Below are positions 24,511 through 42,945 of a stretch of 64,000 nucleotides of DNA, piece after piece. Each line of letters opens with the position of its first letter. The first letter of the stretch is position 1. Source of the stretch: a phage; the sequence record PZ154896.1; one strand, given 5' to 3'. Below the pieces are notes generated by a model, which was given only the letters and a program-made list of their open reading frames with translations, searched no databases and was not told the origin of the DNA. Both the position numbers and the translations under genes were made by a program.

Positions 24511-24698
24511 TATTCTTCTACATGTTGTTTACGGCCTTTCTTATCGATAAAAGTATATTCAACGAATGTTCCGATGTAGTCTTTATCTACATCATGTGGA
24601 CTATTAATTGGGCATTTGGTACGACAAATGCGTTCCCATTGACGAATAATTACTGCCTTATTCTTTGGGTCATATGGATGTGGATAATGTATATTCAT
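24486..24698 (-). CDS. hypothetical small protein (tk.x)
   Basis: ORF trimmed to MNIHYPHP. Confidence 0.35.
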   Translation of the reverse strand: MNIHYPHPYDPKNKAVIIRQWERICRTKCPINSPHDVDKDYIGTFVEYTFIDKKGRKQHVEEYCLKVTWL

Positions 24699-25192
24699 AA
24701 TAATGGTTCCCAATCAACAATCACAATTTCTAGTTTAGTGGAATACGTATCTAAAATCTCTTCGATGATATCCCAGTTTCCGCCACCGATACCTGCACCA
24801 ATTCTTGGCATATAAATTACAGGCTTTGTTATCTTATTCTTTCCGAATTCATTTAATTCTATTATACAATTCATTAAAGCATAGTACTCAAAATTAGGTC
24901 CCGGCTCAAACTGCGTATAAAGATTAAAGCAATAAGCTTTATGGGTCTTAAAATATTTTTCATAAACCGAATAAGTCCCGAGTTTAGACTCGTCTCCGAA
25001 TTCGGTTTGAAGTTTATCGGCTTCTAAAATTTTTGGATAAGCCTTTGCTAATTGTCCTGCCACACCGGCGCCCATTGTATGAAAACAATTACACCCGTGA
25101 GCAATATTATTACCTTTAGAAAACAGGGCGACAATATCGCCCTTGATATAGTTTTTAATCACTTGCTGCAAGTCCTCTAGTATAAGAGTCAA
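24695..25192 (-). CDS. macro-domain (ADP-ribose binding/processing) protein
   Basis: 165 aa; glycine-rich macro-like motifs HGCNCFHTMGAGVAGQL and PRIGAGIGGG. Confidence 0.55.
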   Translation of the reverse strand: MTLILEDLQQVIKNYIKGDIVALFSKGNNIAHGCNCFHTMGAGVAGQLAKAYPKILEADKLQTEFGDESKLGTYSVYEKYFKTHKAYCFNLYTQFEPGPNFEYYALMNCIIELNEFGKNKITKPVIYMPRIGAGIGGGNWDIIEEILDTYSTKLEIVIVDWEPLL

Positions 25193-25502: not shown

Positions 25503-26041
25503 TCTTTTATTTCCAGTAGTTTATTTGATTTAAGGTAATTAGCCTTTTCTAGGACTTCAGAAGCATATTTACTTCCAGCACTTGTCTTCCATCCCGCATT
25601 ATATGAGGATATAGCTTTTCTTATATCCCCGTTATGTATATTTAACCAATAAGAAAATTCGATATAAGCCCATCTGGCTGAATTAGACCGCTTAGATAGC
25701 ATTTTCTTAATTTGGGCATCAGTCATATTATAACCAAGCTGGTTAATTCTTGCCCTCATTGTTGGTAGATAATTTTGGAACATTCCATACGCATGGTGAC
25801 CTTTCTTATTTTTAAGATTAATACCGGCAGATGATTCCTGCCATAGTATTGCGGCCATTATGTATCCAAGTCCTTTCTTATGCATATTTTCATGCGTTTT
25901 AAATTTTCCATCCTTAGAAAACTGTTCCCCAAACTGATAAGCATAATTCAAGTTATCGAGTTGGACATTACTAAAAGTATGCTCGGAGCTATGTGCTGAT
26001 AACGAAAGAGCAAATAGACCAGCGAGTAGTGCTTTTCTCAT
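25499..26041 (-). CDS. periplasmic lytic-transglycosylase-like protein (vs.1-like)
   Basis: 180 aa; signal peptide; ES...GMFQ and YNAG motifs typical of the SLT/lysozyme-like fold. Confidence 0.55.
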   Translation of the reverse strand: MRKALLAGLFALSLSAHSSEHTFSNVQLDNLNYAYQFGEQFSKDGKFKTHENMHKKGLGYIMAAILWQESSAGINLKNKKGHHAYGMFQNYLPTMRARINQLGYNMTDAQIKKMLSKRSNSARWAYIEFSYWLNIHNGDIRKAISSYNAGWKTSAGSKYASEVLEKANYLKSNKLLEIKE

Positions 26042-26049
26042 GTTTACCT

Positions 26050-26508
26050 CTAGATTTTAATCACTGCTTTAGAAGCTTTTCCTGGTAGTCGTTTACTGTT
26101 AATAATAGCCATTCTGCATTGAAGAGTCTTCATTTTGAATGCTGGATTTTCGCGACAAACTGTAAGTCCTAACCAAAGATTTCCATCAGTTATTTCTAAA
26201 CGGCCTGGGCGATATTCGACACCTTCGACAAAATCTTCATCAACATCCGGACGTGCCGGCATTGATAAAAATTCTGCAACTTCTTTAACATGATTTTTTA
26301 CTTTACGAAATAATTCAAAAACGTAGTTCTCATCTATTTCTCTCTGGATGGCACGATCTAAGAGATGTTGAGAATACTTGATATGAAAGCCTGGTAGCCC
26401 AAGAGACTTTGCAGCATCTTTTACACCGGCATTTATTTTGCGGAACTCCGTTTCAAAGATTCGACGGAGTTTATTACGGCGGATAAAAACGTCAGAATTG
26501 ATAGTCAT
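26050..26508 (-). CDS. regB: endoribonuclease RegB
   Basis: 152 aa; near-colinear by recall with T4 RegB (MTIN...FIRRNKLRR...EYRPGRLEITDGNLWLG...). Confidence 0.9.
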   Translation of the reverse strand: MTINSDVFIRRNKLRRIFETEFRKINAGVKDAAKSLGLPGFHIKYSQHLLDRAIQREIDENYVFELFRKVKNHVKEVAEFLSMPARPDVDEDFVEGVEYRPGRLEITDGNLWLGLTVCRENPAFKMKTLQCRMAIINSKRLPGKASKAVIKI

Positions 26509-26520
26509 TTTTGATTTCTC

Positions 26521-26566
26521 CTCTAGTTGACAGGTCTATAGTAACACATCTAGAGGAGAAGTAAAC
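26521..26566 (-). promoter_or_regulatory. PeSL-like early promoter cassette upstream of regB
   Basis: rc: GTTGTTTAC, CTCTAG/CTAGAG inverted repeat around TACTATAG. Confidence 0.55.
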
Positions 26567-26570
26567 AACT

Positions 26571-26786
26571 TTATTGATAAAATGGAGTTAAAGCCCAAGA
26601 TTCTTTAGATACCATATCGGCGAAATGCCTCATCTCTTCGATTTGGCGACGACGTTGGTCAGCATAGTCTTCTTCGCCTTCTTCCTTACAATCTTCAAGG
26701 TCTTCTTCAAGATACTTTAAGTATTCACTACAAATTTTGTTGACCTTTTCTTGAAAGTCCAATAACCCAGTAATAGTAGAAGCCAT
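26571..26786 (-). CDS. hypothetical acidic protein (vs.3 position)
   Basis: 71-aa ORF. Confidence 0.45.
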   Translation of the reverse strand: MASTITGLLDFQEKVNKICSEYLKYLEEDLEDCKEEGEEDYADQRRRQIEEMRHFADMVSKESWALTPFYQ

Positions 26787-27052
26787 TAGTATTTTTCCTC
26801 AGGTCGAAATACTGCACGACATGCCCACATGCTGGCTTCTTTTAGATGTTGCTTAGCATACTTAAGAGCCTGCACTGCATCCATATCTTCTTTGGTTTGT
26901 TGCTCTGATTCATTTTCTTTCAAGATATATGCTTCTTCAATCAGAGCATCAAACATCAATCCAAGACGGACTTCTGCATCTTTAATAGCGTTCACTTTAC
27001 TGATTTTATCATCGGTATGCGGCTTGTAGCCTTTGATGTCTTCAATCGACAT
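26786..27052 (-). CDS. small protein at vs.4 position (candidate Acb2-like cyclic-nucleotide sponge)
   Basis: 88 aa from MSIEDIKGYK; assignment by synteny (regB, vs.3, vs.4) only. Confidence 0.35.
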   Translation of the reverse strand: MSIEDIKGYKPHTDDKISKVNAIKDAEVRLGLMFDALIEEAYILKENESEQQTKEDMDAVQALKYAKQHLKEASMWACRAVFRPEEKY

Positions 27053-27266
27053 AAGGAATTTCCTCATCGGTGGCAAGGTCATATTCGACCAATTGGATAG
27101 GCTCATTAATATCATATCCGCGTACAGTGATATCGGTTGACGGATATTTTCCAGTAATATCACCCGTTCTAAATGCTTCAATGAATGATTGCTCGCCTGA
27201 GCAACCAAACCAGGCGGCAAAACATTTTAAAACATCTTCAGACCCTTCTATAATCAATTTAGCCAT
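27042..27266 (-). CDS. hypothetical acidic protein (vs.5 position)
   Basis: 74-aa ORF. Confidence 0.45.
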   Translation of the reverse strand: MAKLIIEGSEDVLKCFAAWFGCSGEQSFIEAFRTGDITGKYPSTDITVRGYDINEPIQLVEYDLATDEEIPYVD

Positions 27267-27628
27267 TATAGACTCTCAGTAAAGGTACGAGCTATAACGT
27301 CGCGCTGTTGTTCTGGAGTCAGAGAGTTAAAGCGAACTGCATAACCAGATACACGGATGGTCAGCTGCGGATATTTTTCAGGATGCTTAACTGCATCTTC
27401 CAGAGTTTCACGACGCAGAACGTTAACGTTCAGGTGTTGACCACCTTCAATTTTAACTTTAGGTTGATGTTCAATTTCAATTTCACGGGCATTCAAACCG
27501 TAGAAAATTTCCGGGTCTACAATAGCGTCTTCTTTAAAAGTCTTAGAGACGATAATCCGGGCTTGAGTACCATCTTCAAAATAAATAGTGCCTTTATGTG
27601 CACCTTCAAGAATTTGATATGCTTTCAT
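27266..27628 (-). CDS. autonomous glycyl-radical cofactor (GrcA/YfiD-like)
   Basis: 120 aa; C-terminus carries glycyl-radical motif RVSGYAVRF and matches recalled E. coli GrcA/PFL C-terminus. Confidence 0.8.
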
Positions 27629-27634
27629 ATAACC

Positions 27635-27943
27635 TCAATTAGAAAATAAATTTATCCAAGTTTTTTCTTTAATCAAAAATGGGTCGGAATTAAACGCCAT
27701 TAAACTTTGGGTGATTAATCCCTTAAATGGCCCATCAATAAATTCCATTTTGAAATGCGGAATACTAGTCATCAACCGTGCATTAGGAGCAGTACAAAGA
27801 ACCTGTTGACCTGCGAACGGACCTTTAGTCAAACGATATCGTTTAGGTTTAAAATGGTAAATCTCGTAATTTTCTACAAGAGCCCTTTTATTGCATACTG
27901 GGCTGTTATAACAATACTCAAAAACTTCAATAGTGGTCATCAT
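27635..27943 (-). CDS. hypothetical protein (vs.7 position)
   Basis: ORF trimmed to MMTTIEVF. Confidence 0.4.
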   Translation of the reverse strand: MMTTIEVFEYCYNSPVCNKRALVENYEIYHFKPKRYRLTKGPFAGQQVLCTAPNARLMTSIPHFKMEFIDGPFKGLITQSLMAFNSDPFLIKEKTWINLFSN

Positions 27944-28479
27944 TGCATTCCAATCACAAAAAATTGAGGACGAGCAATACCGCCGATGCAATATTTGCTT
28001 TTGCAGCAGTGCTGTACTGATTTAATATGGACATTGTAAATCTTATCCATATCAGGAGCTTTAATAGGCTCGTCAATTATATACAGAATACGAGAAAGCG
28101 TTAATCCACGGAATTTAGAACCTTCATTACCAATAAAACTACGGACAGAATCAGTAAATAAACGGAATCGAATATCATCGCTAGAATAACGAGAAAATTC
28201 TTTTTTAATGTTGCCAGCAGAAATTTTAGCATAAGCTGAAGTATTAGAAAGAACAATAACTGTTCCACCATCGAGCAGCCAATTAGCGGCAAAATTAGTT
28301 ACTGCAGTTGATTTACCAGATTGTCTGCCACCATCTAAACGAAGTGTACAGTACTGCTTGAGTACGTCTTCAAATGGTGGGGCATAACCGTTCTTACAAA
28401 TTTCTTCTACTCTAGCATCAGAATGGTGTGTAAAAGCATTCATCAGGGATAGATAAGGTCCAGTTAAAAATGTTCTCAT
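27940..28479 (-). CDS. small P-loop NTPase
   Basis: 179 aa; Walker A GGRQSGKST and Walker B ILYIIDEP. Confidence 0.5.
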   Translation of the reverse strand: MRTFLTGPYLSLMNAFTHHSDARVEEICKNGYAPPFEDVLKQYCTLRLDGGRQSGKSTAVTNFAANWLLDGGTVIVLSNTSAYAKISAGNIKKEFSRYSSDDIRFRLFTDSVRSFIGNEGSKFRGLTLSRILYIIDEPIKAPDMDKIYNVHIKSVQHCCKSKYCIGGIARPQFFVIGMQ

Positions 28480-28652
28480 TTAGTTTCTCTTAAGGTTGGG
28501 GCCATTCCGTGGCACATGTTAGGTCCTTCGACTCGCTATGTAAACCCATTACCGCACTTGGGCTCGACCTTATTACAGGTTGGAAAAGGTACATCACTTA
28601 GAAGACTCGAGGTTCATAAGGAGAGGTTGCGTTTCCCTTTATTAGGCAAGAA

Positions 28653-28982
28653 TTATACTCTAGGCTTTTGAGCTTGTTTGGTATTGGATTCCCATGCGGC
28701 TTTGGTAATTTTGTTAGCGGCATAACCAAAGGCATTAGATAGAACACCTTTAGAGTTGAATACATCCAATCCAATAAGTACACCTGCTGTGTTAAATTTA
28801 GGAGCAAAGTACGCATTAGTTTTAGAAAGAGCTTTTTTCAATTCAGGGTCTTGAACCAAGCCATCAAAAACGCCTTTACCATTTACTTTATATGTTACTT
28901 TGGGATTTTTAGCTTCTTCGATAGCAGCTTTCTGTTCCGCAGATAGTGTAACTTCAGTAATAAATTCTTGATAGGTTTTCAT
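28653..28982 (-). CDS. internal-protein-like capsid-targeted protein (IP family)
   Basis: starts MKTYQEFITE (capsid targeting sequence, IxE cleavage motif); 109 aa. Confidence 0.65.
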   Translation of the reverse strand: MKTYQEFITEVTLSAEQKAAIEEAKNPKVTYKVNGKGVFDGLVQDPELKKALSKTNAYFAPKFNTAGVLIGLDVFNSKGVLSNAFGYAANKITKAAWESNTKQAQKPRV

Positions 28983-29043
28983 TTTGTTCTCTCTAGGTTT
29001 AGACCATTCCATGGCCCATGAATTGTCCATTTTCCGTATTTAC

Positions 29044-29093
29044 CACTCCAAGTAATTATGAATATACTATCACAATTCTAGGAGAAAGTAAAC
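29044..29093 (-). promoter_or_regulatory. PeSL-like early promoter cassette
   Basis: rc: GTTTAC, CTCC/GGAG inverted repeat around TAGTAT. Confidence 0.5.
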
Positions 29094-29095
29094 TG

Positions 29096-29398
29096 TTATT
29101 TACCTTTAATTACTTTAGCTGCTTCGATAGCCGCTTGCTGAAGGTCGTCCATAGACATACCGAATTTAGAAGCAAAGTTATCAATTTTCTTTTCGACCGC
29201 ATTCAAAGGCTTGGCCTGTTTACCTTCATTAGCGCCTGGAAGAGCGAGAATACGCTCTTTGTCAATATAAAGGCTTACAAGTTTCTTACGGTCTTTATCG
29301 GACAAATCATGAAATGAATGGGCCTTTTTATTTATAGCGGCTTCTAATTTACCTGCGCTCACTCGCGCTTCAGTAATAAATTCTTGATATGTTTTCAT
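29096..29398 (-). CDS. ipII: internal protein II-like
   Basis: 100 aa; starts MKTYQEFITEA; size matches T4 IPII. Confidence 0.6.
   Translation of the reverse strand: MKTYQEFITEARVSAGKLEAAINKKAHSFHDLSDKDRKKLVSLYIDKERILALPGANEGKQAKPLNAVEKKIDNFASKFGMSMDDLQQAAIEAAKVIKGK

Positions 29399-42259: not shown

Positions 42260-42945
<686 letters not shown>

Follow-up and report, generated by a model that had tools for sequence, protein, structure and literature searches.

The window, i.e., the whole stretch of 64,000 nucleotides of phage DNA analyzed in this study (sequence record PZ154896.1), contains an 88-codon open reading frame (ORF) that is the ortholog of the vs.4 (acb2) gene of phage T4. With a probability of about 90%, its product represents Acb2/Vs.4 in the form typical of Mosigvirus (RB69-type allele) and acts against host defence as a small sponge, the sponge activity itself being predicted. 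This ORF is a genuine gene and not a chance one, because its product matches the T4 protein structure 7UQ2 with an E-value of 7.9e-30, relatives of the protein were found in 1233 phage records, and its conserved parts are under strong purifying selection. As a gene, it is an ordinary and already known one, and it adds nothing new to Acb2 biology beyond annotation.

Homology, fold, and genomic setting of acb2

The acb2 gene is located on the minus strand, with the ATG start at position 27052 and the TAA stop at positions 26786-26788. Its translation of 88 aa is MSIEDIKGYKPHTDDKISKVNAIKDAEVRLGLMFDALIEEAYILKENESEQQTKEDMDAVQALKYAKQHLKEASMWACRAVFRPEEKY. In a phmmer search against all PDB chains, the sole significant match to this protein was 7UQ2_A, named "Vs.4", with residues 3-88 aligned to residues 3-89. 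BLASTP against T4 Vs.4 (NP_049728) gave 56 identities in 87 positions (64%, E 2e-37). The Pfam domain PF24729 (Acb2_Tad1_hairpin) was found at E 8.2e-18 and 64.8 bits, compared with a gathering score of 27, and the match covers profile positions 1-58 of 58. Additionally, a profile made from 38 homologs matched Acb2 of phage PaMx33 (p26; 8IXZ, 8H2J, and 8H2X) over the full length with E 5e-5. In this alignment IKGY falls on IKGY, K24 on K26, and P84 on P90. Neither the window protein nor its family profile retrieved Tad1 (Thoeris anti-defence 1) proteins from the PDB. Weak PDB matches to the haptoglobin-haemoglobin receptor, CnrX, and similar proteins were rejected as generic helical-hairpin or coiled-coil similarity.

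In total, 141 relatives at 90% clustering were found in a search of 5.8 billion proteins, and PF24729 was present in all 120 relatives listed of these 141. Nearly all of the 1233 phage records with a relative label it "hypothetical protein". In PHROGs, the window protein is assigned to phrog_717, which has no assigned function.

An AlphaFold2 (AF2) monomer model, built on the alignment of 38 homologs, has a pLDDT of 86, a pTM of 0.70, and helices at residues 13-42 and 50-81. According to this model, the window Acb2 is a two-helix hairpin, i.e., a small protomer with two long antiparallel helices. The only Foldseek matches in the PDB with E at or below 0.001 were chains D, A, and B of 7UQ2 (E 8e-7 to 5e-6, TM 0.69-0.72). 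The PaMx33 Acb2 structures 8H2X and 8H2J were found among the weak Foldseek matches, mixed with generic helical hairpins.

The phage belongs with the RB69 group by nucleotide similarity of the surrounding region. The 2.5 kb at positions 26000-28500 share 99.1% identity with Escherichia phage S143_2 and 98.4% with Shigella phage phi25-307, and phi25-307 is classified in Straboviridae, Tevenvirinae, Mosigvirus (RB69 group). The annotated order of genes in T4 (NC_000866) is tk, tk.1-4, vs, vs.1, regB, vs.3, vs.4, vs.5, and vs.6 (GrcA). In the window, the order in the tk-vs-regB-vs.3-vs.4-vs.5-vs.6 cluster is the same (Table 1); the annotation of Mosigvirus phi25-307 was also used for the comparison. 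The product of T4 vs.4 is likewise 88 aa long in the NC_000866 annotation, and the gene at the vs.6 position is annotated as grcA in both phi25-307 and T4.

The initial annotation had placed the 88-aa ORF at the vs.4 position by counting genes after regB, and the order regB, vs.3, vs.4, vs.5, vs.6 in NC_000866 bears out this count. The Acb2-like identity, which had been guessed from synteny alone, agrees with the matches to 7UQ2, NP_049728, and PF24729. The lack of detectable similarity to Acb2 had been named as the finding that would speak against this identity, and the similarity found is strong and full-length. It had also been stated that T4 vs.4 was reported as Acb2. This is correct, since T4 Vs.4 was described as a CBASS inhibitor, forming a hexamer that binds three cGAMP molecules, and was renamed Acb2 (PMC10449767; PMC10312549).

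Table 1. Coordinates of acb2, its elements, and other genes of the window considered in this study.
Feature	Position in the window	Strand	Basis
regB endoribonuclease	26050..26508	minus	Pfam REGB_T4, 229.6 bits; phrog_1323, endoribonuclease
vs.3-position gene, 71 aa	26571..26786	minus	phrog_2037, E 2.1e-29, no assigned function; T4 order
acb2 (vs.4 ortholog), 88 aa plus stop	26786..27052	minus	ORF and translation, homology
Variable hairpin centre, codons 38-64 of acb2	26861..26941	minus	Alignments
vs.5-position gene, 74 aa	27042..27266	minus	phrog_1986, E 2.3e-36, no assigned function; T4 order
Shine-Dalgarno-like GAGGAAA	27058..27065	minus	6 nt 5' of the acb2 ATG; pattern only
vs.6 / GrcA-like autonomous glycyl radical cofactor	27266..27628	minus	Pfam Gly_radical, 67.3 bits
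Tk.4-position ORF	24695..25192	minus	Annotation of Mosigvirus phi25-307
Acb1 (T4 57B) homolog	42263..42718	minus	tblastn, E 5e-90

The acb2 gene overlaps the upstream vs.5-like ORF by 11 nt and has a TAATG stop/start in common with the downstream vs.3-like ORF; thus, the vs.5-like, acb2, and vs.3-like genes are tightly packed. The Shine-Dalgarno-like sequence of acb2 is located within the 3' end of the vs.5-like gene; the reverse complement of positions 27052-27069, which gives this region in direct reading, is ATGAGGAAATTCCTTATG. The genes at the vs.3 and vs.5 positions are synteny context only and not components of the sponge. The vs.3-position protein has 71 aa, compared with 92 aa in T4, and the vs.5-position protein has 74 aa, compared with 58 aa in T4. 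The DNA identity to T4 over vs.3 is only about 30-60%. Given this low identity, the whole set of small genes around acb2 is variable, and the well-conserved vs.6/GrcA gene flanks it.

Two other ORFs overlapping acb2 were considered and rejected. The first, a 144-aa ORF with a TTG start (26786..27220) in the same frame as acb2, is a mechanical upstream extension, and its additional part covers the conserved vs.5-family ORF, which lies in another frame. Moreover, the sequence M(S)IEDIKGY is the start point in all homologs, including T4 Vs.4, which argues against the 144-aa form. The second, an antisense ORF of 66 aa (26829..27029, plus strand), was also taken as mechanical, in view of the strong minus-strand coding signal. 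Scans of positions 26000-29200 yielded 9 promoter-like sites, with 9.2 expected, and 4 terminator-like sites, with 2.2 expected. Farther along the cluster, the Tk.4-position ORF is annotated as "phosphatase" in Mosigvirus phi25-307, and the T4 annotation of Tk.4 reads "contains A1pp phosphatase motif" (macro-like).

Ligand pockets and predicted sponge activity

In PaMx33 Acb2, the cyclic dinucleotide is bound between the N-terminal parts of two protomers; Y11 provides pi-stacking, K26 forms salt bridges, and binding is abolished by the Y11A and K26A substitutions (PMC10312549). Hydrophobic contacts are made by L14 and P90 (PMC12393519). In T4 Acb2, F82 stacks on the dinucleotide, Y8A disrupts binding, and binding is poor in the escape allele F82C (PMC12657218). 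The corresponding residues of the window protein (Table 2) are 100% conserved in an alignment of 121 homologs. As all four residues are present and invariant, the dinucleotide pocket is intact.

Table 2. Pocket residues of the window Acb2 and their equivalents in T4 and PaMx33 Acb2.
Pocket	Window	T4	PaMx33
Dinucleotide	Y9	Y8	Y11
Dinucleotide	K24	K23	K26
Dinucleotide	F82	F82	not mapped here
Dinucleotide	P84	P84	P90
Trinucleotide	Q61	D61	R67
Trinucleotide	K64	T64	A70
Trinucleotide	Y65	I65	I71
Trinucleotide	Q68	T68	T74

By analogy with T4 Acb2, the 88-aa hairpins would assemble into an interlocked homohexamer with three pockets; two protomers would contribute their N- and C-terminal segments to each pocket, and each pocket would hold one cyclic dinucleotide. 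The ligands trapped in this way would be 3',3'-cGAMP and related CBASS/cGAS signals, as well as 2',3'-c-di-AMP. In such a pocket, stacking on the bases would come from Y9 and F82, K24 would contact the ligand, and P84 would pack against it. The signal would be sequestered and not degraded, so that CBASS effectors would stay inactive and the phage would replicate. The same sponge activity would make the phage a target of Panoptes. This bacterial system makes the decoy 2',3'-c-di-AMP and fires upon sequestration of the decoy, and T4 escapes from it by loss of acb2 (PMC12657218).

The second pocket of PaMx33 Acb2 is located on the three-fold axis and binds cA3 and cAAG via R67 and T74, together with A70 and I71 (PMC10312549). 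The Arg and Thr matching R67 and T74, which mark the broad-spectrum PaMx33/JBD67-like subtype, are absent from the window protein, and Q61 and Q68 were found instead. Because of these replacements, the window Acb2 is predicted from its sequence to be a dinucleotide-only sponge like T4 Acb2, binding neither cA3 nor cAAG. Both T4 Acb2 (D61, T68) and the Acb2 of CHI14 bind dinucleotides and not cA3, and each of them retains only one of the R67/T74 equivalents (PMC10312549). The D61R substitution in T4 Acb2 did not restore cA3 binding, as the pocket is opened by a kink that is absent from the T4 helix (PMC10312549).

The window Acb2 resembles PaMx33 Acb2 in the hairpin fold, the stacking Tyr of IKGY, the Lys (K26/K24), and the C-terminal Pro (P90/P84). 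The two proteins differ in that they share only about 17% identity in the Foldseek alignments to 8H2X and 8H2J, and cyclic trinucleotides are additional ligands of PaMx33 Acb2, bound via R67/T74, the positions of Q61/Q68 in the window protein. The phages differ as well: PaMx33 is a Pseudomonas siphophage, whereas the window phage is a lytic T4-like myophage.

Tad1 and the Acb2 homolog Acb2_43 share with the window protein the Pfam Acb2/Tad1 hairpin domain and sequestration of the signal without its cleavage; they differ in binding gcADPR or 3'cADPR, through other residues and extra strands (PMC12393519). The ligand of Acb2_43 is 3'cADPR, and CBASS is not inhibited by this homolog (PMC12393519). 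Since the ligand has switched in some Acb2 homologs, such as Acb2_43, specificity is not fixed by family membership alone. Nevertheless, a switch of the window Acb2 to a Thoeris (3'cADPR) sponge like Acb2_43, with loss of CBASS inhibition, is very unlikely. For its ligand, Acb2_43 uses additional N- and C-terminal β-strands and residues T4, H5, L6, V7, K19, and K55 (PMC12393519), and the absence of the dinucleotide Tyr is a further mark of Acb2_43-like proteins. Compared with Acb2_43 as described, the window protein retains the Tyr of IKGY and has a T4-like N-terminus; in its AF2 model no strand reaches three residues, positions 9 and 87 being lone bridge residues. Moreover, the window Acb2 retains the dinucleotide set Y9/K24/F82/P84 of T4 and PaMx33 Acb2, and over its first 37 and last 23 residues it is almost the same as the cGAMP-binding T4 Acb2.

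Conserved ends and variable centre of the hairpin

T4 Vs.4/Acb2 (NP_049728; 7UQ2, a hexamer with three cGAMP) is of the same 88-aa size, and its gene likewise lies downstream of regB, with vs.3 and vs.5 as its neighbours. Over the full length the two proteins are 64% identical, and in residues 3-37 and 66-88 the identity reaches about 90% or more. They have in common Y8/Y9, K23/K24, F82, the C-terminal motif KEASMWACRAVFxPEEKY, and the predicted hairpin fold. In contrast, residues 38-65, which form the hairpin tip and the distal half of both helices, are essentially unrelated, with a 1-residue indel. Additionally, the window Acb2 has one more N-terminal residue (MS- instead of M-) and carries Q61/K64/Y65/Q68 on the pocket face, compared with D61/T64/I65/T68 in T4. 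As residues 38-65 are nearly devoid of similarity to T4, hexamer packing and the properties of the three-fold pocket are not simply transferable from T4 to the window protein.

The same bipartite pattern was found across T4-like phages. Residues 3-37 and 66-88, the parts holding the dinucleotide pocket, are nearly invariant, with a column entropy mostly below 1 bit. The hairpin centre (residues 38-65) is hypervariable, with 2-3.5 bits and indels at residues 41-65. At the level of DNA, the two ends of acb2 are 76-87% identical to T4 and the middle of the gene about 38%.

Substitutions were counted by the Nei-Gojobori method in 40 distinct T4-like acb2 alleles. The pN/pS ratio of the flanks is about 0.05-0.2, with values down to about 0.03, and the flanks are under strong purifying selection. 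For the centre, comparisons between allele types yielded a pN of about 0.5 and a pS of about 0.65, i.e., a ratio of 0.7-0.8, with both site classes saturated; within an allele type, the ratio is 0.12-0.24. Taken together, the entropy and the pN/pS values point to the centre as a helical scaffold under weak constraint, of which there are discrete types. Relaxed constraint, exchange of cassettes, or adaptation may each underlie this pattern. Diversifying selection on the centre is neither claimed nor excluded for these 40 alleles, as the sites are saturated between types. There is a small chance that the centre may have a type-specific function.

One such function would be a change in ligands. 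The window protein could be an Acb2-fold sponge in which the diverged hairpin centre provides the three-fold pocket with an extra or different ligand (a cyclic trinucleotide, for example, or some other immune signal), so that its spectrum would be unlike that of T4 Acb2. This reading is unlikely. Residues 41-65 are indeed hypervariable between allele types (entropy 2-3.5 bits, indels) and are under purifying selection within a type (pN/pS 0.12-0.24), but the between-type ratio of about 0.7-0.8, with both site classes saturated, suits weak constraint as well as adaptation. With Q61, K64, Y65, and Q68 in place of D61, T64, I65, and T68 of T4, each protomer of the RB69-type allele contributes a Lys and a Tyr, and the ligand spectrum is known to differ among members of the Acb2 family. 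However, neither the R67 nor the T74 equivalent is conserved in the window Acb2, and the T4-like homologs that were tested, those of T4 and CHI14, do not bind cA3, nor was binding restored in T4 D61R, where the kink is absent (PMC10312549). In the AF2 model of the window protein, residues 50-81 also form one unbroken helix. It is similarly improbable that the RB69-type centre forms a second ligand site of its own specificity, through Q61, K64, Y65, and Q68 on the face that corresponds to the three-fold pocket of PaMx33. If it did, the types of the centre would represent alternative specificities, or escapes from Acb2-recognising host proteins, with cassettes being swapped between the conserved flanks.

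Copies of acb2 with a single frameshift were found in 3 of the 45 T4-like IMG/VR contigs (L044:1501-1800, L047:1501-1800, and L048:1498-1800). In these copies, the conserved C-terminus resumes in another frame. The frameshifts may stem from errors in sequencing or mark natural loss-of-function alleles, and the latter would fit the reported Panoptes selection against acb2. The window ORF itself might also be read as a decaying or non-functional remnant, retained only through its position in the operon, given such frameshifted copies in related contigs and the selection for acb2 loss that Panoptes exerts in T4 (PMC12657218). The probability of this reading is negligible, as the acb2 ORF of the window is intact and preceded by a good Shine-Dalgarno sequence, the identical protein was found on 79 contigs, the flank codons have the low pN/pS given above, and 28 columns are invariant in the 38-sequence alignment.

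Database status, the second anti-CBASS gene, and distant relatives

The exact window Acb2 has been deposited from Mosigvirus phages as AYD79319.1, QBP05731.1, QIG57591.1, and QWV60195.1, and the protein of phage F2 is 100% identical. In NCBI and UniRef, the identical sequence carries the name "Acb2/Tad1 hairpin domain-containing protein" (Mosigvirus). In most GenBank records of Mosigvirus acb2, the label is "hypothetical protein". RB69 Vs.4 (AAP76020.1, "Vs.4 conserved hypothetical protein") belongs to the same 90%-identity cluster and is essentially the same gene. In the searchable literature on the Mosigvirus/RB69 acb2 allele, no item joining Acb2 and RB69 was found, and the items mentioning both Acb2 and Mosigvirus contain no experiments on this allele. 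The name "hypothetical protein" can now be replaced by Acb2 in the window and in many unnamed Mosigvirus records.

The window also encodes a homolog of T4 57B, with 84% amino acid identity over all 152 residues (Table 1). T4 57B is Acb1, the cyclic-oligonucleotide phosphodiesterase. With this homolog and acb2, the phage carries both anti-CBASS proteins, as T4 does. For prediction of the host range, this means that the phage, having Acb1 as well, should evade CBASS systems that signal through cyclic dinucleotides. It should also be vulnerable to decoy guards of the Panoptes type.

According to the literature, Acb2 copies in bacterial genomes are located mostly in prophages. A second, distant group of Acb2 homologs of about 80 aa, with 31-40% identity, was found on IMG/VR contigs of about 4-55 kb (L049-L083). 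Where long enough to judge, these contigs are mostly of 24-55 kb, a size that would suit temperate phages or prophages.
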